In this document: one piece after another, positions 10,147-45,200 of the stretch
How positions within the stretch are numbered: position 1 is the stretch's first letter
How the letters are laid out: each line of letters begins with the position of its first letter
Origin: a virus
DNA length: 64,000 nt
IMG/VR virus record: IMGVR_UViG_3300033149_004284
Span: 22,288 to 86,287 of that record
Strand: one strand, 5' to 3'
Program-made: the position numbers and the translations under genes
The notes under the pieces: model-generated
The model's database searches: none
Told to the model about the DNA's origin: nothing
What the model saw: only the letters and a program-made list of their open reading frames with translations

Positions 10147-11657
10147 TCACTTAGCATTGGGACCTCCTTCGCATAACATATTCAGCATCGGGCAATCATC
10201 TATCACCCGCTTTCTTGCCATCTTGCAATACTCCTCTGACAAGTCTATCCCAATCGCCCTCCTTCCTAGCCGCAGGGCCACCATGACGCTTGTCCCACTC
10301 CCAACAAAGGGGTCAAGAACTATGCAAGGAACTGGGTTATGCCCACATGAACACCCAGGCCGCCATTTGTCCGTTGCGCGACTGGTGAGAGCCCATCCCG
10401 TGCTATCAGTTTTCGTGGGTGCGTTGTTAGGTACGTGCGCTGGCTCTCGCTTGTTAATGTGGCCTGTCCGTTCGATGATTCTGTTCCATCCCTTCCCGCA
10501 CTCCGGGCAGCATCCGCGCTCGGAAGTTCCGAGGTGAATGCACCTCTCAGGAAGCACAGTGGGAAATACGGCGAAGTGCAGCCCTGGAAATCCGCTTGTG
10601 GGGAATCTCCAAACGTCTCTCAGGTTGGCTCCTCGCCTATCAGGCTCCCATCTCTTACCACTGTAGGTCGGATTCCCGTAGCCAGCTGCCTTCTCACCAC
10701 CGAACTTGATATTCAATCGCGGTCTGTCCATTGAGTGTACTGTCTGCCCAGGGACGCCGCGTGAGCGCTTATGGCTGTCGCTCACCCCGCGTTTGTACCT
10801 TGCTACTGAGGCTTCTTTCAAAGGCGTCCTTACAGCGTAGTTGTCATAGTAGTATCGGGCGCTTTTCGTAAGTAGCAGAATATGCTCGTAGCTGGATGTG
10901 CATCTGTCAGTGACACTTTCCGGCATCGGGTTCGGTTTGGCCCAGACTATTGACGACCTCAGCCACCATCCGTCTCTTTGCAGAGCCATGCCCAGCATCC
11001 AGGGGATAGGAACCCATTGTTTATCCTGGAATGAACCGGCTATGTTCAGCCACAGCGTGCCGTCATCCCTGAGCACCCTTTTCACTTCTCTGAATATCCC
11101 AACCAGATGGCAAATGTAGCAAGCTCCGCAAAGGCGCGGCCTGAAATACTTGGCTAGATGAGCAGGCACAGCGTATCTCGGTAGAGTTATCTCGGTTTGC
11201 ATCCTAGCCCTTTCGAGTTCTGACATGACATAGGCACGCTCTTTATCAGTCAGGTCTGGCCGCAATTCCTGGAATGGCCGCCCACAGTCTGGCGTTGGCT
11301 CCAGGCCCAGCGACCCGCGCCAGCAGCCACAGAGACGACAGAAGGCATGATTGTGCGGTTTATGTCGGCTTCCTGCATTACTATCCTGTTTTGCTGATGG
11401 CCCACCTGACATTCCTGGTCGTATCTGCTCGTCCCACTCATGCTTGCACTCATCCGAGCCGCCCCAGAGTAAGGGCGGCAAATTGTAGTCTCTTAATCCC
11501 CATGGAATCACCAGTAGGGTGGCGAGGTACAAACCGTCTGGACGCAAGCATCTGGCATAGTACGCAAGACATCCCTAACATCGCCCTGCACAACAGCCCA
11601 CTGCCGGCTTCCAGCCAATACCTCACTCAACCCTACTGGTTGTCTCTCTCCCTTCAT
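10147..11657 (-). CDS. beta-class N4-C/N6-A DNA methyltransferase, interrupted by an 11-nt insertion after SPPYW
   Basis: 5' segment 11657-11511 translates ...QGDVRDVLRTMPDACVQTVCTSPPYW then TGA; another frame continues GLRDY...WAKPNPMPESVTDR...HFAVFP...VLDPFVGSGT. Confidence 0.85.
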
Positions 11658-11830
11658 CTGATAAATTGCCTTTCATATTAGCCATGCTATGAACCCAGTG
11701 GTGACACTTACGCAAAGCAAAGTTAGATTGCCAAGGTCACAACGCAGCCATCTATCCTCGCCAAGACCTCCCTACAATCCCCCTGCACGATGGCCCACTT
11801 GCGCTGGCCTGATAATACTTCATCTATCAT
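11623..11830 (-). pseudogene. remnant: methyltransferase N terminus joined to an HNH C terminus
   Basis: MIDEVLSGQRKWAIVQGDCREVL, then in shifted frames LRCDLGNLTLLC and RKCHHWVHS. Confidence 0.65.
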
Positions 11831-12080
11831 TTGAGACTACCTCACCAGATATTTTGAGATTCAATTTAAGATATTCAGGGACACTCTCTCCTTCCTCGAA
11901 GAAGAGATACTCGGCGTCTTTACCTAGCCGTCGAATACACCGATCCCTGAATTCAGGCGTTACTGGCTCATGACCATGCTTGAGACGAGAGAGATGCTCG
12001 TAACTATAGCCTAACAGGTCAGCCATCTCTTTCATAGGTACTCTGTAGTCTTCGGCCCATCGAAACAGACTTGTCTGCAT
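11820..12080 (-). CDS. Cro/XRE-like HTH protein
   Basis: MKEMADLLGYSYEHLSRLKHG. Confidence 0.75.
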   Translation of the reverse strand: MQTSLFRWAEDYRVPMKEMADLLGYSYEHLSRLKHGHEPVTPEFRDRCIRRLGKDAEYLFFEEGESVPEYLKLNLKISGEVVSNDR

Positions 12081-12161: not shown

Positions 12162-13076
12162 CTAACCTAGTATTCTCTCAAGATGGTTGCCAAAATTGCT
12201 ATGCCCTGCCCTCTTGAGATACTGTAAGCCGAGAACAGTCAGCTTGCGTCCCCGCCCTGTAATCTCAATAAGAGCCTTTCGCAGCAACAAGGGCTCATAG
12301 ATCTCCTTGATAGTTCTCGCGTTCTCGGCTAAGGCTCCTGCTAAGGTCGATGCGCCTGCTGGCCCTCCCCCAAACATTATACCAAGAACCATCAGGTACT
12401 TTCTCTCCTCAGGCCTAATTCCCAAGAAGTCTATCCCCAAACTAGACAGGATTTCGCCGATGTCAGAAGCCGATGCCTGGTTAGTCACGTCCCTGACACG
12501 TCTCAGCAGATGGTTCGCGATCCTCGGCGTGCCCCTGGCCCTTTCTGCCAAAGCCTCACTAGCACCTGGCTCCAGCGTCACGCCCAGTGCTGCTGCTGAG
12601 TTCTCGACAATCTCGGCTAAGTCCTCAGTCGGATAGAAGTCCAGTCTCAGTCTCAGAGGAAACCTGGTTCTGAGGGGGGCTGTTACCTCCGCAGGCCGCG
12701 TTGTGGCTGCTATGATAGTCCCTCGAGCGCTTCGATCCATTAGGTTTGCCAAACGCTCCTGGCTATCTATGTCCAGAGCATGAACCTCGTCTATGAAGAT
12801 GAACTGAACGGATTCAGGTTCCCTGCTTCCTAGTTCTCTAGTTAGGCCTGCTTCCAAGTCATCATAGTCTTGGCCTGTAACTCTGACAAGGTCCTGGCCT
12901 CCTACCAGCCTAGCCAGCGTCGTCTTGCCGAGCCCTGGTGGTCCAGTCAAGAGAAGGTGATCAAGAGGTTCTGACCTTCCCTCGGCTGCCCCCAGGGCCC
13001 TTCGCAAGACATCTTTGATTTGTTGCTGGCCAATAAAGTCCTGCCAGGCTTGGGGGCGGAGTTTACTATCGAGCAT
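12162..13076 (-). CDS. ruvB: RuvB-like AAA+ ATPase
   Basis: LRPQ..DFIGQ, LDHLLLTGPPGLGKTTLA, FIDEVH, AATTR, PLRTRF, RGTPRIA..LLRRVRD, YEP.L..ITGRGR. Confidence 0.9.
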   Translation of the reverse strand: MLDSKLRPQAWQDFIGQQQIKDVLRRALGAAEGRSEPLDHLLLTGPPGLGKTTLARLVGGQDLVRVTGQDYDDLEAGLTRELGSREPESVQFIFIDEVHALDIDSQERLANLMDRSARGTIIAATTRPAEVTAPLRTRFPLRLRLDFYPTEDLAEIVENSAAALGVTLEPGASEALAERARGTPRIANHLLRRVRDVTNQASASDIGEILSSLGIDFLGIRPEERKYLMVLGIMFGGGPAGASTLAGALAENARTIKEIYEPLLLRKALIEITGRGRKLTVLGLQYLKRAGHSNFGNHLERILG

Positions 13077-13114
13077 TGCTATTGACAATAGAGTGCAAGC
13101 CATCCACGTTTCCT

Positions 13115-13309
13115 CTACCTCCGAAAGTACGGGTTGACTAGCAGAGCCACTACAACCAAGAGCCAGCCCAGAACAAAGAAGACAACAAAGACACCAACCG
13201 CGACATCCAAGAGATTTCTCTTCATCACACCAACGCCTGGTTTGACCAACTGCCAGAACTTGGTCCACGTCATCATGGCCTTTTCCTCCTTCCTAGAATT
13301 ACCTCTCAT
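13115..13309 (-). CDS. small membrane protein
   Basis: one long hydrophobic segment. Confidence 0.5.
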   Translation of the reverse strand: MRGNSRKEEKAMMTWTKFWQLVKPGVGVMKRNLLDVAVGVFVVFFVLGWLLVVVALLVNPYFRR

Positions 13310-29624: not shown

Positions 29625-31102
29625 TGCAAATTGGTCTTTTGCTTAGCTCCAAACACCATGCTGAGATGTTAGCATCTGGTAACAAGACCATGCTCATCAG
29701 AGCGAGGCGTTTCTACCGCTATGTCCGCATACCAGTCTACCTGCTGGCTGATCAGAAGTGTTATGCCAAGATGGTTCTTGGGTCTCCCCAAAAAATAGAC
29801 CTGAGTGGGTTTAGAGCATTGCGGAGTCAACACAGAGTAACTGAAAAGGAAAGGGAGCAACAGTGGCCTGACGAACTAGACTTCTACAGCTATAAAGTCC
29901 AGGTTCTCGAAACTTACGATCCGCCTAAGAAGGTTAAGTTCCCTCCCACCTCTCAGGCTTGGGTACGCCATTGGGAATGGTTAGACCGCCCTCCCAAGGA
30001 GCTCCATCTTGAGAAGGTGGCTGACCTAGAACACTATCATCCGTCCAAGATTCCTGACACAGCACGCGGCAGTGCTATCCTCAGGGACGACGCTCGGCTA
30101 CTCTTGGCCTACTGGTCGTCAAAACGGTCAGGCAAGGATGTCAAATATACCTACGACCTCTTGGAGCAGAAGTACACAGCCATCCTCCGTGAACTCGTTC
30201 GCAGGAGAGCAGCTCAGTTCAGTCCTCAGAACTATAAGCCTCATGCTAGAGATCTATTTGACAGAGCTGCGCGAACCCTCCAGTTGGAAGGTATTACTGT
30301 CCCACTCAGAAAGAGCTCGCATCTGAAAGGACTCACAGCCCTCCAGAATATGACGGATAAGGAACTCCTGGCTCACCATGACCACTTGCATCAAATGTAT
30401 GCTGAGGGCAAAGTGACTAAGGAGAGCATCGTCAATGCTCATATCTTTGCAGTCCAGGCAATGAGACATAGGGGCCTATCTCACAAGATCGAGGATGACC
30501 TTGACAGGGAGCTCCAGGGATCTGCTGCATCACGCCTCGTCCCCTTCGTCATCATAGACTCAATGGTTTGTCAAACTGGCTCTTCTGTCTACGACATCAG
30601 GCCCCCTCACGACTGCGACTTAGTGATACGCAGCGATGAGGAAGACTCCAAGATGACCGCAGCTATCCTTAAGGCCGTTAACCTCCCTCCATCAACCATC
30701 CACCGTATTTATGAACCCAGAGGCCCCTCCTTTGACTATGTGGCCCTCCTGGATTATGTAGCAGTGCCAGTAGCCTGGAAAGGTACCTGGACGAAGAAGA
30801 GCATCCGCCCCGAGGACATCCCCGAACACTCTTGGGCTATCTATCGGCAGTTGCCTCCTGCCGTCTTAGTCCACGACCCCTTCGTCACTCAAAGCAACAA
30901 TACTTTCTACGTCCGAGATGCTCGCCGCAACACTGGCATTGAGATCAAGCTCACCAGGCTGTTAGCGGCTAACCTCTCCTTCCGATGGCGCGGGGAGGAC
31001 GAAGCCATGGCAGGAACGCCGCTCTTTAAGTCTTTCCTGATTCCACATATACCTCTGAGGAGGGCCAAAGTCGATGAGCCTTTCTTCCGAAGATACTACT
31101 GA
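29624..31102 (+). CDS. multidomain protein: ASCH/PUA-like, helical His-rich, nucleotidyltransferase-like
   Basis: HAEMLASGNKTMLIR (ASCH-like); ELLAHHDHLHQ..IVNAH..MRHRGLSH; QTGSSV..HDCDLVIR (Pol-beta GS..DxD). Confidence 0.6.
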   Translation: MQIGLLLSSKHHAEMLASGNKTMLIRARRFYRYVRIPVYLLADQKCYAKMVLGSPQKIDLSGFRALRSQHRVTEKEREQQWPDELDFYSYKVQVLETYDPPKKVKFPPTSQAWVRHWEWLDRPPKELHLEKVADLEHYHPSKIPDTARGSAILRDDARLLLAYWSSKRSGKDVKYTYDLLEQKYTAILRELVRRRAAQFSPQNYKPHARDLFDRAARTLQLEGITVPLRKSSHLKGLTALQNMTDKELLAHHDHLHQMYAEGKVTKESIVNAHIFAVQAMRHRGLSHKIEDDLDRELQGSAASRLVPFVIIDSMVCQTGSSVYDIRPPHDCDLVIRSDEEDSKMTAAILKAVNLPPSTIHRIYEPRGPSFDYVALLDYVAVPVAWKGTWTKKSIRPEDIPEHSWAIYRQLPPAVLVHDPFVTQSNNTFYVRDARRNTGIEIKLTRLLAANLSFRWRGEDEAMAGTPLFKSFLIPHIPLRRAKVDEPFFRRYY

Positions 31103-32186
31103 GATTCGTGGTCTCCTGTATCGAGATAGGCAGACTAAGGTGGCATTAAGGTTTCTCAAAAGGATAAATGTATCCCTAGAAGCCATTAGGCGAAACCTCG
31201 CAAGAGCAGAGGAGGCCCTTGCGGATGAGCCTCTATCTAGCAATGTGAGACTTCTAGCCGGCAAGTTTCTGCTAGCGGAGGAAGACATCCCTCTGGAGGA
31301 TTTGGGTATTCTGACAAAGACTCCAAATCTAGCCAGCATCATCATTCTGAACTACAATACTCTCAAGATCACCTCTGACTGTATCAAAAGCGTTCTAGCC
31401 TTGACTGAATACCCTGCGGAGATGATAGTAGTTGATAACGGCAGCACGGATGGCAGTGTGGCCTGGCTCAAGAAACAGAATTACCTAACTTTGATATCTA
31501 ACAAGAATAACCGTGGCTGGACTGCCGCAAACAATCAGGGCATCAGAGTCTCCAAAGGGGCCTACTGCCTGTTACTTAACAGCGATACCATTGTGAGGAC
31601 AAGGGGCTGGCTCAAAGCCATGATTCGCCTCGCTCAGCCCCCTGACGTGGCGACGGTCGGGGCCAAGCTTCTTTACCAAGATGGTACCATTCAGCATATA
31701 GGGGGCAGCATCCACGACGTCAATCCCTTCCATCCCTTTGACGGAGCGCCTGCCGACATTCCCGAATCACTTAAAGTCAGAGAAGTCCCTTTCAACACGG
31801 GGGCCTGTCTCCTTATCAAGAAATCCGTCATCGAGCGGGTGGGCTTACTTGACGAGAAATATGTGTTCGGTTATGGTGATGTGGACTATGGCTTGAGGTG
31901 TCTTGAGGCAGGATTTAGGAATCTCTACTGTCCATCGTCTATCCTAACTCATCTCTGGGCTTACACTCAGCGAAAAACAGGCAAGTGGATTCCATCTGAG
32001 AGCTTTGCCAGGTACAAACAGAAGTGGACTGACAAGACGCCCGCTCTCTCTAAAAAGGTTGACATGGATTTCAGGTGGCCTGATTCTGCACAGTATATCA
32101 GAAGGACTGGTCCGGGCAGTCATATAGCAACTATTCGCAAGAAGGAGAGCGCTATGACCTGGGGGGCATTAAATGAAAACCAATGA
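31074..32186 (+). CDS. GT2 glycosyltransferase
   Basis: SIIILNYN, VVDNGSTDGS, NRGWTAANNQG, LLNSDT, TGACLLI, DVDYGLR. Confidence 0.92.
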   Translation: MSLSSEDTTEIRGLLYRDRQTKVALRFLKRINVSLEAIRRNLARAEEALADEPLSSNVRLLAGKFLLAEEDIPLEDLGILTKTPNLASIIILNYNTLKITSDCIKSVLALTEYPAEMIVVDNGSTDGSVAWLKKQNYLTLISNKNNRGWTAANNQGIRVSKGAYCLLLNSDTIVRTRGWLKAMIRLAQPPDVATVGAKLLYQDGTIQHIGGSIHDVNPFHPFDGAPADIPESLKVREVPFNTGACLLIKKSVIERVGLLDEKYVFGYGDVDYGLRCLEAGFRNLYCPSSILTHLWAYTQRKTGKWIPSESFARYKQKWTDKTPALSKKVDMDFRWPDSAQYIRRTGPGSHIATIRKKESAMTWGALNENQ

Positions 32187-33024
32187 GTTTGAGCCTAAAG
32201 TCTTTGTCAAGAACGCAAAGGAATCTGGGCAGCAGGTATCTCTAACCATGGTCACCTTTAATCGGTGGAATCTCACTCAGCAGAGTCTCTCTTCCATTTT
32301 CGAGCACACTCATCTGCCATACATTCTGACTGTTGTCGATAACGGGAGCTGGGACGAGACGAGGGAAAACCTACAGGAACTCAGGCGGTCTGGTAAGATT
32401 AACAGATTGATTCTTCTCCCCGAGAACCGAGGCATTGACATGGGGAAGAACTTCGGCCTGCGAGCTACCCAGGGCCAGGCTAGCTGGTACTGCTGTATCG
32501 ACAACGATATCAGAGTCAGTCCCTACTGGCTCAGCTACCTCTGCTATACATCTACTCTCCCTCGCCTTGGCATAATCGGCTGCAATGTTCAGGGATTTGG
32601 CACTCCTGGAGGCCCGAGCTGGTTTACACCCACGCACTGGAAAACTGTGAAAGGAGTTGTCCTAGACAACTGCCCTAATCCAGGTGGAATCTATGTCATC
32701 AGTGCAACTACATTCGAGAAGCTAGGCTTCTTCGTTGAGAGGGGCCTCTACGGTCTAGGGGACAGCCAATACTACTCACGGGAGTTTCAACATGGCCTCA
32801 GAAGCGTCTATGTGAGAAATGTCGATTGCAGAGAGATACCTGATGAGGACTTTGTGATGGCAGACGGTACGTCGTATAGGACTTTCAAGGCGACTTCTCA
32901 CAACTCTATGCGTCAGAAGGTCAGAGAAATGGCATCTCAAGGCATTGATATCCACCCAAAGCATTACGAGACTAGAGTAACGGCCCAAGAAGTTGAGAAG
33001 TATACCTGGACGCCAGAATCATGA
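32173..33024 (+). CDS. GT2 glycosyltransferase
   Basis: VTFNR, VVDNGSWD, ENRGI, CIDND. Confidence 0.88.
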   Translation: MKTNEFEPKVFVKNAKESGQQVSLTMVTFNRWNLTQQSLSSIFEHTHLPYILTVVDNGSWDETRENLQELRRSGKINRLILLPENRGIDMGKNFGLRATQGQASWYCCIDNDIRVSPYWLSYLCYTSTLPRLGIIGCNVQGFGTPGGPSWFTPTHWKTVKGVVLDNCPNPGGIYVISATTFEKLGFFVERGLYGLGDSQYYSREFQHGLRSVYVRNVDCREIPDEDFVMADGTSYRTFKATSHNSMRQKVREMASQGIDIHPKHYETRVTAQEVEKYTWTPES

Positions 33025-33050
33025 CCTTAGATACTTAGGGGTCCCCAACT

Positions 33051-33527
33051 ATGATTTTAGATGCAGGATCAGGCATGGCATCGAACCCAAGAGCCAACAT
33101 ACTCATGGACAAATATCTTCAAGGAGACAGTACCTCTCGTATAACGGGCACTCTTATGATTCGCAAAGGACAGACTATGATTTGTGGTGACCTTGAGGCC
33201 ATGCCATTTCTGGATAAGTCCTTCGACATTGTTATTTGCTCTCAGACGCTCGAACATGTTGATAATCCTGAGAAAGCCTGTGCTGAGTTGGTGCGGGTAG
33301 GAAGGAGTGGTTTCATAACTGCGCCAAACGAGACAGTAGAAAGGCGTCGATATGAGCGTCGCGAGAAGCTCTATCACAAGTGGCTTATCAAGCAACGGGG
33401 CACTCACCTCGACTTCTATCTCAGAAGTCTCGTTCCAAGCCTCCCGATGATGGAGCATCCTAGCCAGGGCGTGGATATGGCTTGGAAAGGGAGCTTCACT
33501 TGGTCAGTGTTCAGAGAATCGCCATGA
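33051..33527 (+). CDS. class I SAM methyltransferase
   Basis: ILDAGSG, MPFLDKSFD..CSQTLEHVDNP..ELVRVG. Confidence 0.88.
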   Translation: MILDAGSGMASNPRANILMDKYLQGDSTSRITGTLMIRKGQTMICGDLEAMPFLDKSFDIVICSQTLEHVDNPEKACAELVRVGRSGFITAPNETVERRRYERREKLYHKWLIKQRGTHLDFYLRSLVPSLPMMEHPSQGVDMAWKGSFTWSVFRESP

Positions 33528-34516
33528 CAAGACTCCCCAGAGTCCTATTCGTTAGCATAGCTCCGTCTCTCCACACGGAGTTCTGGGCTGCTGGCTTTAT
33601 GAAGGCCCTTCGCAAAGTTGCCGTTCCACTGGCTTTCCCTTTCAGGAAAATGGCTCATGACCACGGGGCAGCCTACATGAACGAGACGCTAGTGGAAACT
33701 GCTCTGGAGTTTCGTCCTGACCTGATCTTTATTAGGAAGGGGGAAAGCATTCTCGGCTCTAGCATTAAGACGCTCAGGGATTCCCTGCCTGCTTATATCA
33801 TCTACTATTGTGGGGACTTCCGTCTCAATCCAGTCTCCTTCATCGTCGATATTGGACGATACGCAGATTGTACCATTTTCAACAACGAGGACGAGAAGGT
33901 TGCTGATAGATATCAGGTTGCGGGTGTGAGACATGTGGGTCCTTGGTGGGACGGTGGAATTGACCCAGAAGTCTTTTGCCCGCAAGACGTACCCAGAGCC
34001 TGGGACCTAGCCTTCATGGGCACTAACGTCCCCTTGCCTCACAGGGGCTATCAGGTACGTCGCCAACTACTGGAGGCTATCGTCGAGAGTAACTACTCTC
34101 TTCACATCTTCGGTGGGGCTGAAGGCTGGAAGTACCTCCACACGAATACCCACCCGTTCGTTTATGGCCCTGCTTTCGCTAAGGCCTGTTCTCAATCGCG
34201 TATCACTCTGGGCGTCAATGGAGTGAACGACATGTATCTGTATGCTTCCTGGCAACGTACTTTCAAGTCAATGGCCAGTGGAGCGTTTCACCTTACTCAC
34301 TATGTCCCTGGACTGGAGACGTTCTTTGAGAACCGCAAGCATCTGGTCTGGTTCATCTCCATACCTGAGGCGATGAGTCTCATTGCTTACTATCTCACTC
34401 ACGACGAGGAACGTGAAGAAATAGCCATGGCAGGCCGACAGGAGGTTCTTGCTCACTTCACTTGGGACGATGCTGTCGCAAGGCTTATGAGGATTTGGCA
34501 AAGTGACTGCTGTTGA
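33524..34516 (+). CDS. CgeB-like GT-B glycosyltransferase
   Basis: FRPDLIF..KG, DLAFMG, SRITLG.N, RTF..MASGAF.LT, YYLTHDEEREEIA..G..HFTW. Confidence 0.88.
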   Translation: MTRLPRVLFVSIAPSLHTEFWAAGFMKALRKVAVPLAFPFRKMAHDHGAAYMNETLVETALEFRPDLIFIRKGESILGSSIKTLRDSLPAYIIYYCGDFRLNPVSFIVDIGRYADCTIFNNEDEKVADRYQVAGVRHVGPWWDGGIDPEVFCPQDVPRAWDLAFMGTNVPLPHRGYQVRRQLLEAIVESNYSLHIFGGAEGWKYLHTNTHPFVYGPAFAKACSQSRITLGVNGVNDMYLYASWQRTFKSMASGAFHLTHYVPGLETFFENRKHLVWFISIPEAMSLIAYYLTHDEEREEIAMAGRQEVLAHFTWDDAVARLMRIWQSDCC

Positions 34517-35186
34517 ACAATACCGTAGGGACTTCGCCACGTACATGAGCCTTCCTGGAGCTGAGAGGTGTAGACTCCAAATGTATCCTCGTCTTGAGGA
34601 TAAGACCGCATCAACTCCCCTGGATGCCTATTACTTTCGACAAGATACCTGGGCGTTCAAGCGGATAGTAGACCTCAAGCCTAGCAGCATAGTAGATGTA
34701 GGATCGACTGCGCTCCTCGTGGGAATTCTTGCCCAGATGTTTCCTACAACGAGTATCGATATAAGGCCCATTCCAGTATCTCTTCCTGGATTAACATGTA
34801 GGCAAGGCTCGATCACTAATCTCCCCTTCAAAGACGCCTCAGTTGAGCTCCTGAGCAGCCTATGTGTGATAGAGCATATAGGTCTAGGTCGATACGGCGA
34901 CAAGCTCGATCCGCTCGGTAGCATCAAAGCCTGCAAGGAGATCTCGAGGGTGCTCAAGCCTGGTGGACATTTCATAATGAGCACTCAAGTGAGTCATACC
35001 CCTGCCCTCTGCTTCAATGCGCACCGAATCTTCACGCAGGCCCAAGTTCTGGATATGTTGCCAGCCTTCTCGGTAACGGATGAGGCGTTCTTCTTCCCTC
35101 GGCCTGGCAATGCAGAAGACATAGAGGCACTCACGGGTTTCAGGTTCTGCTTCTGGTGCGTAGACTTGGTTAAGGAGTCAGCATGA
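34503..35186 (+). CDS. SAM methyltransferase-fold protein (DUF268-like)
   Basis: YFRQDTWA, VDVGS, SLCVIEHIGLGRYGDKLDP, FNAHRIF. Confidence 0.82.
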   Translation: MTAVEQYRRDFATYMSLPGAERCRLQMYPRLEDKTASTPLDAYYFRQDTWAFKRIVDLKPSSIVDVGSTALLVGILAQMFPTTSIDIRPIPVSLPGLTCRQGSITNLPFKDASVELLSSLCVIEHIGLGRYGDKLDPLGSIKACKEISRVLKPGGHFIMSTQVSHTPALCFNAHRIFTQAQVLDMLPAFSVTDEAFFFPRPGNAEDIEALTGFRFCFWCVDLVKESA

Positions 35187-35986
35187 CGCTCTCGGTTGTA
35201 ACTCCTAGCTACATTAACAACCAGCAACGAGCTGATTGGGCCAGAGACTCTCTGGCTTCCCTCAGGGAAACTATCGGCGACGGCTACTTACATGTTGTGG
35301 TGCTTGACAAATCCCTTGAATGGAATATTATTGCTCAGGCAATCTATAACCAGCCTAATGTAATGCTCATGCAGCGTCCCAAGCCTCTTGGCAATACTTC
35401 AGCTTTGCTAAAGGCCGTGAAGGAATCTCGCAAGTTGGGAGCAGATCTCTGTTTTGTCCATATGGACGATAACATCTATGTCCCCGAATTCGGACCTCTT
35501 CTCAGATATGCCCAGGACGCTTTCAGCAACGATAGGGAGTTGCAAGAAGTGCTCTTTGTTGGCTACCCGATCCTTATAAAGAGGCATAGCAAACCACTTC
35601 TTGGCAATCGCACAGGCCTAACTATCGAGGAGAATCAAGTCTCTTTCGATACCATACAGTTGCACCCTACTCGCTGTACGGATTATACTCTCTGGTGGTC
35701 TTATTTTCATGACCGAATGGTGGACGGGCGATTTTGGGCAGTTGTCATGTGGATGGCTCTCTACCGAGCTGAGTTCTTGGAGAGTGTCCTTACACTTGCC
35801 CCTACGGGCCGGACGCTTGGTCAGGTTGAATCTTACTACAGAAACAGAAGCAACTGGGAGAGACTATCCCATCGCTTTCCAGGAAAGCTCGGTTACATAA
35901 ACATGCAGTTCGGCGGTTTGGAGATGCACCATCATAGTCAGGAATGGTGTGAGATGATCCGTTTTCCTAATACGCCTGTGAGGTGA
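35183..35986 (+). CDS. putative GT-A fold glycosyltransferase
   Basis: LSVVTPSY, VVLDKS, FVHMDDN; cluster context. Confidence 0.55.
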   Translation: MTLSVVTPSYINNQQRADWARDSLASLRETIGDGYLHVVVLDKSLEWNIIAQAIYNQPNVMLMQRPKPLGNTSALLKAVKESRKLGADLCFVHMDDNIYVPEFGPLLRYAQDAFSNDRELQEVLFVGYPILIKRHSKPLLGNRTGLTIEENQVSFDTIQLHPTRCTDYTLWWSYFHDRMVDGRFWAVVMWMALYRAEFLESVLTLAPTGRTLGQVESYYRNRSNWERLSHRFPGKLGYINMQFGGLEMHHHSQEWCEMIRFPNTPVR

Positions 35987-36022
35987 GACATATAGGAGAA
36001 GACTTACCTGTGAGGTGAAGGA

Positions 36023-36661
36023 ATGACTTACAGAGAGAATCCAGAACTAGGTCAGGACATGGTTAAGTTTGCCTTTCATCGTTGGCAGCAAGGAGAATAT
36101 CTCTTAGAGCCTCCTCAGCGTCAAATCTACGAGAATATTGCGGTCAGAGCGAAAGGCAAGACGGTCTGTGATATAGGCTCTGGAGCGGGACTGGGAACTA
36201 CTATCCTAGCACAAAGGGCTCAGTCAGTTATTGGCATCGAGAAGGTTGCGTCTTCCGTCAGGTTCTCTAGGAAATGTCATCCCCTAACAAATGTGCAGTT
36301 TCTGAATGAGGATATAGGGAAGTGCTCTCTTTCTGACAACAGTTTCGATGTAGTGGTGGCGGTTGAGGTGATAGAGCATATCGCAAACTACCAGGCAGCA
36401 CTGGATCAGATGGCTCGAATTCTGAAAGAGTCTGGAACCCTATACATCTCGTCTCCTAACAGGAATCAAGATATTAGAGGAGGAGCGTCAGGCGCAGGCC
36501 CGCCAAGGAACAAGTATCATGTTCGAGAGTGGACAGCCGAGGAGTTTCGGCATATTCTTCTCTCGCGCTTCAGTCAGGTTAGGCTTTCTGACTATACCCT
36601 TGACCCTTGCCTAGACTCCTGTACGCGAGTCTCGCCAGTTATCGCGATCTGTCGAATATGA
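36023..36661 (+). CDS. class I SAM methyltransferase
   Basis: VCDIGSGAGLG, FDVVVAVEVIEH, SSPN, HVREW. Confidence 0.9.
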   Translation: MTYRENPELGQDMVKFAFHRWQQGEYLLEPPQRQIYENIAVRAKGKTVCDIGSGAGLGTTILAQRAQSVIGIEKVASSVRFSRKCHPLTNVQFLNEDIGKCSLSDNSFDVVVAVEVIEHIANYQAALDQMARILKESGTLYISSPNRNQDIRGGASGAGPPRNKYHVREWTAEEFRHILLSRFSQVRLSDYTLDPCLDSCTRVSPVIAICRI

Positions 36662-37326
36662 GAACTCTGTGGATCGTTATTCCAGCAAAAGATGAGGCTG
36701 CTACTATTGCAGACCTAGTTGCCGAAGCCGCCCACTACGGAACGGTGTTAGTAGTTACCAGTGGGCCTTCAGACGATACTGGCCCAAGAGCTGCCAGCGC
36801 GGGAGCCCAGGTAATCTACAACGGCCAGAGCATTGCAGGAAAGATAGTCACTGGCTGGCAGAGAGCCCTCGACAACAATGCGACACGAGTCATAGTCATG
36901 GATGCAGGCGGATCGCATAGGCCATCAGATATCCCCCGTCTCCTGGCAGCAGAGGCTGACATCGTAATAGGCAGTCGGTTTGTGGCTGGAGGCCAATATC
37001 ATGGCAGATCGTGGCGCAGGGTATGCAGTCAAGTCATGGCTCTGCTCTGCAACCTAGCCCAACCAGGTAAACAGGTCCATGACTGGTCTAGCGGCTTCAG
37101 GTGTTATTCGGTAGAAGCAATTGGGCAGCTACTAGCCGTCCATTATAAATCTGATATGCACGCTTGGCAAATCGAGGTGCTAGGCTGGGCTAGGCGCTTG
37201 CACCTTTCAGTTGAGGAAGTCCCTATACAGTATACTGCTGGGCACTCGTCTCTCTCCTGGGATGGGGCTCTCAGGGCTCTCAATATATTGTTAGACATCT
37301 TGCTCCGCAGGTGGGTAGTCGGATGA
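36658..37326 (+). CDS. GT2, DPM1-like glycosyltransferase
   Basis: VIPAKDEA, VMDAGGSH.P, VIGSRFV.GG, DWSSGFRCY, EEVPI. Confidence 0.85.
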   Translation: MRTLWIVIPAKDEAATIADLVAEAAHYGTVLVVTSGPSDDTGPRAASAGAQVIYNGQSIAGKIVTGWQRALDNNATRVIVMDAGGSHRPSDIPRLLAAEADIVIGSRFVAGGQYHGRSWRRVCSQVMALLCNLAQPGKQVHDWSSGFRCYSVEAIGQLLAVHYKSDMHAWQIEVLGWARRLHLSVEEVPIQYTAGHSSLSWDGALRALNILLDILLRRWVVG

Positions 37327-38396
37327 TATTCTACCTTGATACATACATTACTGACGAGCCTCTCCATCCTGCGTTTGTTTGGCCAAACAGGGAGATCAGG
37401 AACTCCTGTCCCCAGTATAAGATGCCACGGAGAATAGATATCACAAAGTACACGCTTGCGAGTTATAAGATGATTCCGTGGACACATGTTGTCATCGCAT
37501 ACGATGTTGCTGATAAGGATGATGAAAGCACGTTCCTGGACTTTGTGCAAGAAGTTTTCCCAGACGCAGATGTTAGTCGGCCTCGCTCCTCTAACCAGAA
37601 GACGTACAGGGCAAGAGTGGAGCAAGTTTGCAGTTTTGAGGATGACTTCATCTTTTATGCACCTAACAACGATCATCCCCTCATAGCAAGCAATCTCAAT
37701 CACCTGCCCAAGTTACTCAAAAAGGCTTCAAGGTTCTCACAAAACTACCCATTTGTCTCCGTTGTCTACTCGCACTTCAGTGAGTTCGTCAACGCGCCTG
37801 TCGTTGGGAGTCCTTTCTACAGACAGTTCTCTAGCGACTCACGCATAGTAGAAGACGACGAGATTGCTACGAGCTTTGTGAGATTCAATGGCGACAACTC
37901 TTCTATCCAGATCGTCAATAGGAATCTCCTGCAACACTGGTTTTGCTCACATGATCTCGGTGATGCCAGAATCATCAGAGCAGAAGATGTTCGCAGGTTT
38001 CTTCCAACTCCTAACCAGTTGATGATAGTGCCCAAGAAGGAGCTCTGTGCGCACTTTGACGGCTACTCGCATACAACTGGTATCACTAAGATCAGTCCTG
38101 ACCAGATTCCTCCTCTATTCATTCCAACAGGGTTCTTCGACAGCTCGATTCGGATCGCCTACGGATATCCAGAATACCGAGATGGCTGGGTAAACATAAA
38201 CCCTTCTGCGAGGGATTTCAGTTTCCGCGACCGAAAGACGGGCACAGATCTGAAAATTGGTCTTCAGGACATACCTCTTTTCTGGAAGAGCAGAATCGCA
38301 GAAATAGACATCAATGTGAATGCCGACCTCGAGCGAATTAAGGAGGGCAGAGAGAAATACTTTGAGACAGTTCGTAACCCCTGGAGGAAAGCCTAG
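37323..38396 (+). CDS. hypothetical protein, possibly GT-A fold
   Basis: 357 aa; IFYAPNNDH at a DxD-like position, ELCAHFDGY; cluster context. Confidence 0.5.
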   Translation: MIFYLDTYITDEPLHPAFVWPNREIRNSCPQYKMPRRIDITKYTLASYKMIPWTHVVIAYDVADKDDESTFLDFVQEVFPDADVSRPRSSNQKTYRARVEQVCSFEDDFIFYAPNNDHPLIASNLNHLPKLLKKASRFSQNYPFVSVVYSHFSEFVNAPVVGSPFYRQFSSDSRIVEDDEIATSFVRFNGDNSSIQIVNRNLLQHWFCSHDLGDARIIRAEDVRRFLPTPNQLMIVPKKELCAHFDGYSHTTGITKISPDQIPPLFIPTGFFDSSIRIAYGYPEYRDGWVNINPSARDFSFRDRKTGTDLKIGLQDIPLFWKSRIAEIDINVNADLERIKEGREKYFETVRNPWRKA

Positions 38397-38971
38397 TGAT
38401 CAAGTTGCATATAGGCTGTGGCCCCAGAGTGCTAAAGGGATGGATAAATATCGATCTCAAGTTCACTCCTTACCAGGCGTACCTGAAATACTACACTGAC
38501 AAGTACTACCCAGAGTCCGCTAGGGGCGACAAGTCAGATTTTCTTGCACTAGATGTGTCTAGGCAGCCTTTGCCCTTTCCTGACAATTCGGTAGATGTCG
38601 TCTTCCATGAGGACTTCCTTGAGCACCTGAACCAGCGTAGCCAAGTTCTCTTCCTAGCTGATTCTCTCCGAGTCTTGAAGCCAGACTCCATTCATCGAAT
38701 TGATACGCCTAACCTGTTAGCATCGATGCGCGATCACTCTAATTTCTCCCTTGGCTTTCAGGGTGTCTATGTCCATGAGTGGGATAAGTCCAAGCATCTC
38801 AATGTATTGACCCCTAGCTCGCTTGAAGAGATGGCTCTTATGGTTGGATATTCAACAGTAGTCTTCACAGGTAGAAACCAAAGTGCGTCGCCTCTGATTC
38901 CGCCTGAGTATCGCCCTGATCCAAGAGATCGGCCCGAGAACGGAAACATCTTTGCAGATTTGGTTGCTTAG
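38396..38971 (+). CDS. class I SAM methyltransferase
   Basis: KLHIGCG..GWINID, LPFPDNSVD..EDFLEH, RVLKP..RIDTP. Confidence 0.88.
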   Translation: MIKLHIGCGPRVLKGWINIDLKFTPYQAYLKYYTDKYYPESARGDKSDFLALDVSRQPLPFPDNSVDVVFHEDFLEHLNQRSQVLFLADSLRVLKPDSIHRIDTPNLLASMRDHSNFSLGFQGVYVHEWDKSKHLNVLTPSSLEEMALMVGYSTVVFTGRNQSASPLIPPEYRPDPRDRPENGNIFADLVA

Positions 38972-38981
38972 GAGTAGCGCC

Positions 38982-39860
38982 TTGAGGATATTTGTTCTTC
39001 CTGTGTCGTCTCAGTTTCAACCTCCTCCCATGAAGATTCTCTATCCTCCTCACAACAAGCGAGACTACGGCATTGAGCAAGACTTCGCTCAGCATCTCAC
39101 AGAGCCTTCTAGTGACTGGACGATCGCAGAGTCTTCTGACGTTGCTGATTGGCATTACCTTCCTATCTACTGGACACGTTACCATGTGACACATAACTAT
39201 GCCAAGACTGGCCTAGAAGCACTTCAGCGTGAAGTTGCCCGAAGAATCATTGACGACAAAAGGACCTTTACAATTTGCCAGTATGATGATGGGCCTTTGG
39301 TAGACCTTGGTAGAACTGTGCAGTTTCTAGGGTCTCGCAAAGGGGAAGAAGGCATCGACGTCCCTCTTCTTTCCTATCCTCATAAGCTCCCTGCAGTTGA
39401 TCCCCCTAAACAGTGGTTAGCGTCTTTTGCAGGGAGACTCCGAACGCACGAGGTTCGCGCAGACATGCAGCGTGTTCTGGGGCCTCGCCAGGACATTGAC
39501 ATTCAGGACACACGCAAAACCAGTAGATTCTTTGTAGACTTGATCCTTCGGTCGTATGTTTCCCTCTGTCCCAGGGGATGGGGTGGCTCGTCTTTTAGGT
39601 TTTATGAATCTATGCAACTGGGAGTAGTGCCCCTTCTCATTGGCAGCATAGACACCCGCCCCTTCAAACGTTTCCTGAACTGGAGTATAATGAGTCTCTA
39701 TGCTCGCACGGCCGAGGAAGCAAATGTGTCCCTCGACTCCCACACTCTGACAGAATTGCTAGAGATGGGGCGATGTGCCAAGAAAGCCTGGCATCAAGAT
39801 CTATCGTTTGGGCACTGGCACAAGTATGTGTTTCAGGAATTGGAGGCTCTATGGCATTAA
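38982..39860 (+). CDS. exostosin-family (GT47-like) glycosyltransferase
   Basis: LASFAG...H.VR, SLCPRGWGGSSFRFYESMQLGVVP; TTG start after AGGAG. Confidence 0.85.
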   Translation: MRIFVLPVSSQFQPPPMKILYPPHNKRDYGIEQDFAQHLTEPSSDWTIAESSDVADWHYLPIYWTRYHVTHNYAKTGLEALQREVARRIIDDKRTFTICQYDDGPLVDLGRTVQFLGSRKGEEGIDVPLLSYPHKLPAVDPPKQWLASFAGRLRTHEVRADMQRVLGPRQDIDIQDTRKTSRFFVDLILRSYVSLCPRGWGGSSFRFYESMQLGVVPLLIGSIDTRPFKRFLNWSIMSLYARTAEEANVSLDSHTLTELLEMGRCAKKAWHQDLSFGHWHKYVFQELEALWH

Positions 39861-41305
39861 AGCACCATCAGCACTCTCTACAGGCCGAGGCGGTATGGGG
39901 GAAAGCCTACGGCGTGTTTGATCGAATTGTTCAGTTGAGAGGTTTCAGGACTGGCGTCGAGGTTGGCGTTGCTTTTGGAGGGCACATAGAAGCACTTCTC
40001 AACATCCCCACTATTGAGAAGGTCTATGGAGTTGATCCCTATCAGCAAACAGGAACTAGCAGCTCCTTGGGCCTCTCGCAGTCTGAGATGGATACCCTCT
40101 ATCTCTTCGTTCTGAACAGACTTGCCCCGTTTGGCGATCGTTACCAGCCTGTACGAAAAAGCTCGGTAGAGGCATCGTCTATCATCCCGCAGGAGATTGA
40201 TTTCGTCTACATAGACGCTGACCATTCCTACCAGGAAGTTATGGCGGATCTCTGTGCTTGGTTTCCCAAAGTACGCGAAGGCGGGATAATTGGCGGCCAT
40301 GACTATTCTCATCCTGACTTGCCAGGAGTTAAGAAAGCCGTGGATAGATTCTTCAGTCGGTTTGCTCAGCGCGTTCACTCACTAGGCGAATATGTCTGGT
40401 GGATAGAGAAGAAGATGCCCAGCATCAGCTTCGTATTGCCTGCATACAACTGCGCTGAGTTCGTCGAGGAGTCTGTGAAGTCTATTCAGAAGGGGAACTT
40501 TGAAGATGGCGACGAGCTCATCATTGTTGACGATGGCTCATCTGACAATACCCTGATGATTTTGCAGAGACTGGCCGCGTACTATCCCTCAATAAGGCTT
40601 CTCAAACACGACAGTAATAGGGGCGCATCAGCAGCCAGGAATACAGCGATAGCCAGTGCCAAGAACTCCCTACTCTTCAACCTAGACTCAGATAATATCC
40701 TAGTGCCAGGCAGCATCCCCAAACTCAAAACATATTTGATTAGCTCCAATGCTGATATAGCAGTGTTCGAGGAGACGCGTTTCTTTAGAAACGGAACTGG
40801 CCAGATAACACACAGCTGGAAGTATGGCCCAGGTCTGTTGACTCTATCCGACTGCTTGGCTGGCCAAATAACTCCTGGGGCTAGTGGGAACTATATGTTC
40901 ACTAAGGAGTCCTGGGCCAAAGCTGAAGGTTACCCTGAGTTCGCAAAGACCTATGAAACCTGGGGATTCGCCTTCAGGCAGCTAGCCACAGGCTCCAAAA
41001 TGATGGCAATGCCCGACTCTTTCTATCTCCATAGGTATGGCCATTCGTCACTCTGGGTGCGAGAAGGAGGAAATCGGAACGCTTCTCGGAAAACTCTAAA
41101 GATGATTCTGCCCTTTCTTGGCCTGCTTGACTACAAGGACGTTGAATACATAATGAGCCACAAGGAGACCTGGCTTACTAACTTATCTCAGCACCCAATA
41201 CGAGTCAAGGGGAGCGCTCCTGGGAATTCGGGCAGCATCAAACTCCAGAGCCCTCCACTTGACTATATGGAGCTTTTGTGTCAGAATATAGACGAGGAGA
41301 CATAA
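39851..41305 (+). CDS. SAM methyltransferase-GT2 fusion
   Basis: GVEVGVAFG, DFVYIDADHSY, GGIIGGHDY; then SFVLPAYN, VDDGSSD, GASAARN, LDSDN. Confidence 0.92.
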   Translation: MALKHHQHSLQAEAVWGKAYGVFDRIVQLRGFRTGVEVGVAFGGHIEALLNIPTIEKVYGVDPYQQTGTSSSLGLSQSEMDTLYLFVLNRLAPFGDRYQPVRKSSVEASSIIPQEIDFVYIDADHSYQEVMADLCAWFPKVREGGIIGGHDYSHPDLPGVKKAVDRFFSRFAQRVHSLGEYVWWIEKKMPSISFVLPAYNCAEFVEESVKSIQKGNFEDGDELIIVDDGSSDNTLMILQRLAAYYPSIRLLKHDSNRGASAARNTAIASAKNSLLFNLDSDNILVPGSIPKLKTYLISSNADIAVFEETRFFRNGTGQITHSWKYGPGLLTLSDCLAGQITPGASGNYMFTKESWAKAEGYPEFAKTYETWGFAFRQLATGSKMMAMPDSFYLHRYGHSSLWVREGGNRNASRKTLKMILPFLGLLDYKDVEYIMSHKETWLTNLSQHPIRVKGSAPGNSGSIKLQSPPLDYMELLCQNIDEET

Positions 41306-42239: not shown

Positions 42240-45200
42240 ATGTCTGAGCTTCTGATTCGCAAGGTCGGCAACATCTGCTTTGTGCTGGACGAGAAGGGCA
42301 AAGATGTCTCAGGTGACTATGCAGACAGCCTTAACCAGTACAGAGATCTCGGGTTGTCCTCATTCTCCCTGTCAGCGCTGGGCTATGAGAATTCTCTCTA
42401 TCCTACTGACTGCCTGGAACTATCAGGGGAGAGCCTGGCTGAGCTCTCCCATCAGGAACGGGTAGACTTGTTCCTCACGGCTCTTCCCCAAGACCAGGAT
42501 ATCTCCTTCCGGCAATCGAAGCAAGTAGAGCTATTCAAACCCTTCACTCCGCTGAAGGCCCGCACTGGCTATGGTCTCTATGAGTTCAATAACAAACAAG
42601 ACCTCTGGGAGATGTGGGCCAAGGAGCGCATAGAGGCCAAGCGACCGATTGCTGTTCAGGCCAAGTTTGACGGTATCCGGCTTATCGTATTCAGGAAGGG
42701 CGACAGAGTTCAGATGCTCACCGAGGATAAGAAACGAGACCGTGCTTCTATTCTCCCTGAAGTCGTAGCAGAGATTAAATCTCTGCCAGGCGACTCCTGC
42801 ATACTGGATGTGGAAGCTGTCATTTGGCAGGAGAATCAGCCCATTCCTCGTCGTGAGATGATAAAGATGGTTGTGGGCAAAACACCTCTCAGGGGTGAGG
42901 ATATCCACATTAATGTCCACGATTGTCTGCTAGTAGATGGTAAGCCTCTTAACACTGAGCCCTACTCGGTGCGATTGGCAGCTCTTGACGAACTTCTCCC
43001 TAAGGATAAGAAGTTTCTCAGAAAGGCTCAAACTTGGGTAGCTAAGACTAAAAGCGAGTTCCTGTCTGCCCTCGACAAGGCATCTGCTTATCCTGGCTCA
43101 GAAGGAGCTATGGTCAAAACCTTGGATAGCGACTATCCTATTCGGGGTCGTACCCGAGAAGAGACTGCTGACTGGGGAAAGTTAAAGTTGGCGGTGGAGC
43201 TGCATTGCAAAGTCATAGGGCGTACTCGCAAGCCTAATCCCTGGCCTCCTGACGAACGCCCCAAACGCAATCTCCAGGGTGATGAGGCCCTTAAAGCCTT
43301 TCGTAAGTTGCAGAAAGGCTCCAAGACTTTCTACTATCGCTGTGCCCTTCGGGACGGTAAGAAGCTCATCCCTATCGACTCTGAGCACAAGCTGACTCCT
43401 GGAAACCTCTCCCTCAAGTGGGACGCCGAACACGAGGGCGGAGTCTGGAAAGGCACTGACGACCCTGAAATCTGGGAGATGGCTAAGGGTTTTGAGAACA
43501 GGCCCCGAGGCGACTGGGCTTATGGCAATACCTACGCCGTTAAGTACGACCCTCCGCCGAAACTGGGCGATATCATCACAGTGGCTCCCATCCTGATGCG
43601 AGCCTGGAAGGACAACAGCACTACTCACTACTCCTGGACTTTTCCTAGATGCAAAGAGTTTGATCCTACCCGTACACAGCCTGACACCGTCCAGGACGCA
43701 GAGCGCATCGTGGCAAAGTCTCCCAAGTCCATCCGCAAGCATGTTCGTCCTGGGCCTTTTGGGCATCCTGGAGGCAAAACCGTCTTGCTGAAGCATATCC
43801 TGCCTAGGATACCTGCCCATGAGACTTATTGTGAGCCTTATGTCGGATCAGGGGCTGTATTCTTCGCCAAGCCCAAAGCCCACAAGTCAGTTCTAGGGGA
43901 TACAGACCCTGAGATAATAGCAGCCCTCCGCTTTGTTCGGGACGCCTCAGCAGAGGATATCGAATGGCTGCGCAAGCAGAACTGGCAGCCGTCCAAGGGT
44001 CGCTGGCAGTTCCTCAAGGATCAAAAGCCAGTCCGCAAACGAGAGCGCTTCTATCGCTTTAGATACCTGGATATCAACTCCTGGGCTCACTCGCCTGCTA
44101 AAGGCTTCGCCCGTAGCAACCAGCCCGCATCCATGAAAGCCGAAATGGATAAGATCAGGGCAGGCCAGCAGAAACTACGTGGCAATGTCTCTATCGTCCA
44201 GCAAGACGCCTTCAAGACTATGCGGGAGAATGACTCACTGTCTACTTTCCACTACATTGATCCGCCCTATTGGGGCAGTGGTGACCTTCAGCCCTATGGT
44301 GGTAAGGCCCCTGACCCCGAAGCCCTTGTTAAGTTCCTCAAAGGACTACGCGGCAAGTGGCTACTATCCATGGCAGACAAACCTAGAACGCGCAAGGCCT
44401 TCAAGGATTTCAATATCAAGTCAGTCTCTCGTCAAATGACTTATACAGTTTACTCGCGTAAGACTAAGGCTGGTCAGCCAACACGCACTCGCCGTGAGCT
44501 CCTAATTGCTAACTACGACTTCGCCGATCTCCACGAAGCCGTAGTTCCTCCTGGCGAAGGCGAGAAACCCACCCACAAGAAGCAGCGTGCTGAGGCTGAG
44601 CGCAAGTTCGGCGATCCCTACATGGTTCACCAACCTCCCGACAAAACCTTTCCCTTTGTCTATATGCACCATGAGCGGGGTATCTGGACTCAGGCTGAGC
44701 TTGTGGGCCTACGCGCCGCACTCAAGAACGCCAGACGATATCCTGATCTTATTCCTGACATCTGGAAACGTTACAAGCCTGTCGTCCTAACGACTAGCCT
44801 AGAGTCTCTCAGGCGAGACGCAGAGGCAACCTCCGAGAAGCGGGGTGATGTCACTGCTGCTGTCCACAAGCACCTTGACGAGAAACCTCCCAAAGTTCTT
44901 CCTTCCAACAACAAGATACTCAATGTGGGCAATGTCCATGGTGACTGGCGAATGCGCTCTCCAGAGGGCGAGTTCCTCATTGGGTGGACCCTCTCTACCC
45001 CGTCGGTTGTACTCCAGTTTGCCGACGGCAAAACCGTCTATCCTATCAGGGACAGATTCCTTGAGAACAAGGAGGGCGACAAGATAGTAGCCTACCGCAA
45101 GTGTCCTAATCCACTCTGTGACGAGGAGCGCTATTTACGCCTAGTTGAATCCAATCCTCATGAGAGCGTGTCCCAGATGTTCGCCAGCGAGGAGGGCGAA

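Follow-up and report, generated by a model that had tools for sequence, protein, structure and literature searches.

A candidate short bypass over a stop codon in a phage DNA methyltransferase gene and its recurrence among SPPYW methylases

Background

Programmed translational bypassing is so far known almost wholly from gene 60 of phage T4, with few special cases besides. The gene 60 bypass and the mobA homing-endonuclease cassette have been treated repeatedly (PMC5462505; PMC7026636; Manning & Atkins, bioRxiv 10.1101/2022.08.31.505936; Wills et al., bioRxiv 10.1101/2024.12.09.627546). Coding gaps of 10 nt are present in the terminase of Streptomyces phage phiHau3, for which mass spectrometry demonstrated the bypass in E. 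coli (PMC10732093). A natural in-frame stop hop was not known to a recoding review of 2016 (PMC5009743), and a mycobacteriophage paper merely wonders whether the segments of split C5 methylases involve a hop. Our literature search found no description of natural short stop-hops in phage methylases.

The present study concerns a stretch of 64,000 nt, hereafter the window (positions 22,288 to 86,287 of IMG/VR record IMGVR_UViG_3300033149_004284). It sits on an 87-kb contig of a metagenome-assembled genome (MAG) of 411 contigs and represents a tailed phage with genes for a portal, a protease/major-head fusion, a tape measure and a helicase. A prediction made from the letters alone had proposed that ribosomes hop from a Trp codon over an adjacent stop codon to an identical codon in a methyltransferase gene. 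Coordinates are window positions, and the features of the methylase locus lie on the minus strand.

Results and discussion

Anatomy of the interrupted gene

On the minus strand the site reads ACC TCG CCA CCC TAC TGG TGA TTC CA TGG GGA TTA AGA GAC TAC. An upstream open reading frame (ORF) of 49 codons, the N-module (11511-11657), runs from ATG to TSPPYW, carries the catalytic motif IV (SPPY) and is closed by a stop right after SPPYW. Its last codon, TGG for Trp49 (11511-11513), is the candidate take-off codon and is followed directly 3' by the in-frame TGA (11508-11510). This stop, the spacer TTCCA (11503-11507) and a second TGG (11500-11502), the same codon again and the putative landing site, make up a gap of 11 nt. 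Both the matched codon pair and the stop or slow codon at take-off that mark programmed bypassing are therewith present in the window. Reading would resume at GGA (11497-11499), identified from the sequence and from the alignment to the unbroken homologue P0010 as the Gly of GLRDY. The C-part of 450 codons (10150-11499, stop 10147-10149) extends from GLRDY through DPFVGSGTS (motif I) to the C-terminus, as delimited by the ORF list, the PF01555 profile and the P0010 alignment. The N-module aligned to residues 3-51 of P0010 (E 1e-14) and the C-part begins at residue 52; with exactly 11 nt removed, the methylase is thus colinear with the unbroken protein. The arrangement TGG-TGA-TTCCA-TGG described in the original prediction was confirmed, and so was the statement that skipping 11 nt restores SPPYWGLRDY between open flanks of 49 and 450 codons.

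The C-part matched PF01555 (N6_N4_Mtase) in the profile search with an E-value of 2.9e-36. Together with SPPY as motif IV in the N-module and the SAM motif I of FxGxG type in the C-part, this places the gene by sequence in the beta-class of DNA methyltransferases. The SPPY form of motif IV presumably indicates a putative specificity for N4-cytosine. TGA closes 30 of the 50 long ORFs of this phage and is therefore an ordinary stop; a reassignment of TGA was ruled out on these grounds, and the frames of the N-module and the C-part differ anyway.

Just upstream of the methylase operon lies a gene for a RuvB-like AAA+ protein with RuvB_N, lid and C-terminal winged-helix domains (12162-13268, minus strand). 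Further observations concern the plus strand. An ORF of 1343 aa in the structural module (42240-46271) has PHROG matches to DNA methyltransferases, an ATP-dependent ligase and a head maturation protease, and by these matches it is an unusual multi-domain fusion. The 892-aa ORF at 46635-49313 matches head maturation protease and major head protein families and is apparently a fusion of protease and capsid protein. The region 31074-41305, located between the portal gene and the capsid gene, holds glycosyltransferase- and methyltransferase-like ORFs (31074-32186, 39773-41305).

Recurrence of the break

DNA pattern scans revealed SPPYW-TGA-gap-GLRDY at 93 viral and metagenomic loci, plus a few cut by contig ends; a first loose scan had yielded mostly chance matches, which were filtered before counting. 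By source, IMG/VR contributed 14-15 true cases and the JGI/ENA metagenomes about 80. A directed scan for the other stop codons obtained eight loci with TAA, all eight of them true, and none with TAG. The whole pattern, SPPYW followed by TGA or TAA, 0-10 nt and GLRDY, comprises about 100 loci. The break was also encountered where no stop-based search had been used: of 120 homologous proteins, six (P0004, P0091, P0080, P0097, P0105, P0051) were given an N-terminus by the gene caller that results from reading SPPY(W)+TGA out of frame. Of 120 CVTSPPYW loci sampled without bias, 119 continued in frame and unbroken, and the sole exception, TGG TAA CG TGG GGC, had the architecture of the window. Given this sample, the break in the window is far more than chance. 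A scan of 185,579 species genomes (GTDB) for VTSPPYW-TGA gave 12 matches, all due to chance and outside methylase genes.

A class with a Tyr codon at take-off was represented by ten IMG/VR loci (L380-L389) reading SPPY-TGA-C-TGG, SPPY-TGA-AT-TGG or SPPY-TGA-TTAG-TGG, thus broken one codon earlier. Their landing triplets GAC, AAT and TAG match TAY at two of three positions, and in this small sample the upstream helices, treated below, were weaker than in the Trp class. Four loci (L284, L301, L351, L290) read SPPYW-TGA-AAATGC-GLR, or -ATGT-G, and then turn into unrelated sequence; they look like shortened remnants with the C-part of the methylase deleted or replaced. The interrupted methylase L048 from IMG/VR has a C-part ORF of 1150 aa, where 280-560 aa are usual, and may contain a large insertion or fusion.

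Gap lengths and landing triplets

The loci held 49 distinct gaps of 3-13 nt, counted with the stop included. Lengths fell into all three classes modulo 3, with 15, 21 and 13 gaps for remainders 0, 1 and 2. In 48 of the 49, the gap ended in TGN directly 5' of the Gly codon (TGG 16, TGC 15, TGA 13, TGT 4; the remaining one AGG). Given the number of loci, the insertion is not a lesion private to one genome. The exceptions to the TGN rule were L373, which lands on AGG, and P0004, which seems to land on CGN. Gaps of 4 and 5 nt were absent among the 49, being too short for a TGN that does not overlap the stop. For gaps that are in frame, e.g., TGATGA or a bare TGA, a frameshift offers no rescue. Re-pairing of peptidyl-tRNA-Trp in the P site would predict a stop combined with a landing triplet that agrees with the take-off codon at the first two bases.

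The base 5' of the landing TGN was A in 29 of the 46 gaps of at least 7 nt, and the base 3' of the stop was most often C (21 of the 49 distinct gaps). Context effects on landing and on termination are possible reasons.

An RNA helix at the take-off codon

A helix search and folding located a pairing between the take-off region and a segment within the N-module. The 5' strand is ACCAGTAGGGT (11630-11640) and the 3' strand ACCCTACTGGT (11510-11520), the latter covering the last Pro codon, the Tyr codon, the Trp take-off codon and the first base of the stop. The helix has 11 bp, 10 bp of which were returned as perfect by the helix search, and with its loop of 109 nt it closes a hairpin of 138 nt. 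The fold of 11645-11508 had a minimum free energy of -66.1 kcal/mol (z -5.34), and none of 200 shuffles was as stable. The loop is longer than in the commonest class of the family, 19-35 nt.

Among 82 interrupted genes, 62 had a perfect helix of at least 8 bp ending in the take-off codon, compared with 3 of the 100 unbroken genes (p 7e-23); relative to the final base of that codon, the 3' end of the helix lies at -3 to +1. At equal GC content, the 60 nt ending at the take-off codon folded with a z of -2.16 in interrupted and +0.56 in unbroken genes, a difference that goes back to the pairing of the take-off region with the upstream segment. Conservation of ...VTSPPYW, which might otherwise hint at a nascent-peptide signal in the exit tunnel, is expected anyway for the catalytic motif. 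The 5' strand of the helix follows the synonymous codons of TCN CCN CCN TAY, e.g., CCAGTATGGAGG/CCTCCATACTGG and CCAGTAGGGGGG/CCCCCCTACTGG. In a MAFFT alignment of 45 short-loop members, 30 double-change cells were counted versus 13.7 after shuffling (0 of 500 shuffles as high), and covariation in the true register exceeded that of all slid registers. The many G-U pairs point to pairing of RNA rather than DNA. Both in the window and in the family, the pairing is located 5' of the take-off codon and can form as the mRNA exits the ribosome.

Folding of spans with 0-30 nt ahead of take-off and 20-50 nt beyond it was no better than in controls, and the gap is too short to contain an A-site take-off stem-loop. 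The local hairpin of the original prediction, CCCUA(C)UGG-UGAUU-CCAUGGGG, had a z of -1.09, was equalled by 25 of 200 shuffles and is mutually exclusive with the upstream helix; this element of the prediction was given up. A Shine-Dalgarno-like role of GGUGA was considered as well, but the motif is missing in the TAA variants.

Selection on both halves of the gene

The closest relative of the window gene shares 54 % identity. Close relatives were found neither in IMG/VR nor in 12 genomes of the same family, a search of the INPHARED phages with the gene returned no match, and the exact 49-aa N-module peptide was absent from the protein collection searched. Because of this lack of close relatives, selection after the insertion is not measurable for the window copy, which could be a recently dead gene.

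Selection was assessed in a clade of nine loci sharing the 11-nt gap TGAACGAATGA, identical in all of them. Pairs of C-ORFs had an omega of 0.08-0.27 at a dS of 0.27-1.6, and in the N-modules pN was well under pS (e.g., 0.064 vs. 0.277). N-modules had diverged by 0.2-0.45 per synonymous site with gaps and ORFs still intact. Judged by these rates, both halves of the gene appear to be under purifying selection while the gap is kept in gap-sharing clades. The two halves differ in their histories, as seen in L322/L323 (N-modules 91 % identical at the nucleotide level, C-parts about 50 %) and L341/L315 (74 % and 92 %). Part of the C-part divergence thus predates the arrival of the cassette: for a part of the divergence between genes with the same gap, the reason is the transfer of cassettes to different genes and not a long vertical descent, which weakens the evidence from pairs of high dS.

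The length of the C-ORF served as measure of intactness; a regular expression for motif I under-called intact C-termini. Leaving out genes cut by contig ends, 38 of 46 interrupted genes had a C-ORF of at least 250 aa, compared with 84 of 87 unbroken genes. Most interrupted genes thus seem to be maintained and some to be decaying.

Homing-endonuclease cassettes and a proposed origin of the gap

A duplicate of the N-module, situated some hundreds of bases upstream, was present at 12 of 59 interrupted loci versus none of 91 controls, and about a quarter of the interrupted loci showed an HNH or LAGLIDADG gene together with the old 5' module just upstream. The order in these loci is old module ending in SPPYW(G), endonuclease gene, new N-module, gap. 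An HNH gene lies between the modules in L278, L285, L300, L309 and L349 (E 1e-8 to 1e-11), a LAGLIDADG gene in L269 (E 1.3e-5), weakly in L263, and by motif only in L372 and L178. Upstream of 54 interrupted loci there were 78 ORFs, nine of which matched PF01844 (HNH); among the 133 ORFs of 88 controls this family was not among the best 25 of 60 families, and one HNH_3 was present. When all ORFs up to 1.5 kb away on either side were screened (E 1e-5), the only endonuclease matches were two HNH and one GIY-YIG; the signal emerged when the upstream side was considered alone.

Upstream of the current N-module the window contains a decayed older 5' module of the methylase, a 35-codon ORF (11723-11830, minus strand; MIDEVLSGQRKWAIVQGDCREVLARIDGCVVTLAI, followed by a stop) that is about 70-75 % identical in nucleotides to the N-module as far as the SPPY region (tblastn E 1e-7). 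The ATG of this remnant overlaps with the stop codon that ends an upstream 86-aa HTH-like ORF (11820-12080), which suggests that the original methylase was translationally coupled to this ORF before the new 5' module was inserted. An endonuclease gene was not found near the window methylase, where the remnant of the old N-module alone is present; the arrangement is consistent with a cassette that later lost its endonuclease and left the remnant behind.

In the scenario that we propose, HNH or LAGLIDADG endonucleases would cut the conserved coding sequence of SPPYWGLRDY, and the inserted cassette would consist of the endonuclease gene, a new N-module and the gap. The gap would destroy the target site at the new junction and so confer immunity against the endonuclease, while hopping would keep the methylase alive. 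By the sequence comparisons, the best explanation of the gap is that it belongs to a selfish homing-endonuclease cassette. The original prediction had assumed a hop that limits methylase output; the evidence points to a selfish-element origin instead of such a purpose.

Proposed mechanism and alternative explanations

The window gene probably encodes one beta-class N6/N4 DNA methyltransferase made via a short programmed bypass, a stop-hop. The ribosome would translate the 49-codon N-module up to Trp49 (UGG), with UGA then in the A site. The peptidyl-tRNA-Trp would release the take-off UGG, the mRNA would slide by 11 nt and the tRNA would re-pair with the second UGG; decoding would resume at GGA to give ...TSPPYW-GLRDY..., with neither extra nor missing residues. 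The likely motor of the slide is the long hairpin that re-zips behind the ribosome, its 3' strand (11520-11510) pairing with the 5' strand (11640-11630), so that helix formation would drag the P-site codon out of the ribosome. The maximum gap of 13 nt may correspond to the order of the mRNA path from the P site to the exit. What the sequences show is the anatomy of the site, the landing rule of the family, selection, covariation of the helix and the association with endonucleases; the hop and its efficiency, the role of the hairpin and that of immunity to the endonuclease are inferred. Of the original prediction, the hop from UGG over the stop to UGG stood and gained family-wide comparative support from the landing rule, the gaps in three frames, selection, the covarying helix and the cassettes, and the local hairpin fell. 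Bypass appears well supported by comparison for the family; for the window the support comes from the sequence signals, all of which agree. The synthetic stop-hops that Weiss and colleagues constructed in E. coli in 1987 are said to be inefficient, which counts against a hop in the window.

A dead or dying gene, in which the 11-nt insert is the inactivating scar of a cassette invasion or its repair and the ORFs are open merely since the event is recent, is unlikely, yet it is the alternative with most in its favor: the window copy has no close relatives that could reveal selection after the insertion, its endonuclease gene is already lost and its old N-module decayed, and the C-ORF is shortened in about 17 % of the interrupted relatives compared with 3 % of the controls. 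It leaves unexplained, however, why 48 of 49 gaps end in TGN with a free third base while 4- and 5-nt gaps are absent, why a covarying helix is specific to interrupted genes (z -5.3 in the window), and why purifying selection acts on both halves in clades with a retained gap. Against the selection data, the inactivating footprint, named in the original prediction as an alternative, fails as a general explanation. An assembly or sequencing artefact could be suspected in a MAG of 411 contigs; we regard it as hardly credible, as the 11-nt insertion follows a rule common to about 100 independent assemblies from many studies, and the neighboring 35-aa ORF is recorded on three contigs.

Two further explanations invoke translation in another frame. 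Termination at UGA with a restart at the overlapping GUG (G-GUG-A, 11511-11509) would yield M-IPWGLRDY, with the 49-aa SPPYW peptide joining non-covalently. Stop/start overlaps of the GUGA type are a common form of coupling in phage operons, and the -1 frame from this GUG is open into the C-part in the window. Such a split enzyme is nevertheless improbable: gaps of 3n and 3n+1 nt have no in-frame start, the 3n+2 gaps TGAACGAATGA, TGACGTGA, TGACATGA and TGATTTGA have a stop right after GUG in the -1 frame, neither the TGN rule nor the upstream helix would have a reason, and a catalytic loop severed after W, with its first part on a peptide of 49 aa, would hardly assemble. Reinitiation at the NTG preceding the landing base was rejected as well, being out of frame with GLRDY. 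The -1 frameshift at UGG-UGA, giving SPPYW-VIPW-GLRDY, was the other alternative of the original prediction. The C-part lies in the -1 frame, which is open through the gap, but CCA CCC TAC TGG TGA lacks a slippery X XXY YYZ heptamer, tRNA-Trp is unable to re-pair on CUG, and four residues would be added to the most conserved loop of the enzyme. As the family has gaps in every frame, including in-frame double stops, the shift fails as a general explanation and is very improbable for the window.

For the family, we lean towards the view that SPPYW methylases host a large natural group of stop-hops over 3-13 nt, in which a hairpin pulls tRNA-Trp off its codon and re-pairing needs two bases, and which has spread in HNH/LAGLIDADG cassettes with the gap as immunity. 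If so, a minimal element (stop, 0-10 nt, two-base landing match) with a covarying helix as puller is at hand in about 100 natural versions, and the forward driver of the ribosome, the codon-anticodon pairing needed for landing and the distance of mRNA drag become testable. Homing endonucleases could enter a catalytic motif and still leave the gene alive. Annotation is affected too: such methylases are split or shortened by gene callers (P0001, P0004), thus the methylomes and the anti-restriction capacity of phages are under-called.

Comparison with known bypass systems

The phiHau3 terminase (PMC10732093) likewise has a short coding gap in a phage gene, and a flanking structure and a landing codon have been proposed for it. 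There the trigger is the rare 'hungry' codon UUA and not a stop, few phages are concerned, and neither an endonuclease cassette nor a covarying take-off helix is described. The byps of Magnusiomyces mitochondria, as far as the accounts cited in PMC5009743 and PMC10732093 go, resemble the methylase gaps as many short non-coding inserts bypassed within genes, but they are mobile GC-rich inserts of 27-55 nt in a eukaryotic organelle with other signals. In the synthetic E. coli stop-hops (Weiss et al. 1987, as summarized in PMC5009743), a peptidyl-tRNA leaves a stop-adjacent codon for a matching codon few bases downstream, as is proposed here; according to that summary those hops were engineered and of low level, whereas the methylase family would be natural, conserved and equipped with an additional RNA element.

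The closest counterpart is T4 gene 60. Matched take-off and landing codons, a stop directly 3' of take-off and about 45-50 codons ahead of it are common to both, and for both a pairing of the mRNA behind the ribosome has been proposed as forward driver. The methylase helix would fit the model for gene 60 in which exiting mRNA drives the ribosome forward by pairing (bioRxiv 10.1101/2024.12.09.627546), with the P-site codon itself as the strand that would be reeled in here. As with mobA and gene 60, an HNH homing endonuclease accompanies the gap and interrupts the gene of a conserved enzyme, and there are signs of 'hit and run' loss of the endonuclease. The logic is also alike in that the most conserved coding sequence is targeted, a replacement 5' module is carried along and the target is broken by the gap (bioRxiv 10.1101/2022.08.31.505936). 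In contrast to the 50 nt of T4, the methylase gap has 3-13 nt (11 in the window), which leaves no room for an A-site take-off stem-loop. Take-off involves tRNA-Trp (or tRNA-Tyr) and not tRNA-Gly, the landing codon needs the first two bases only, the host gene is a DNA methylase and two unrelated endonuclease families are involved. The 5' stem-loop of T4 is poorly conserved (bioRxiv 10.1101/2022.08.31.505936), whereas the methylase helix is strongly conserved and includes the take-off codon. If the hop is real, the SPPYW methylases offer a compact and experimentally tractable counterpart of gene 60, and ribosome hopping would be a recurrent solution of phages.
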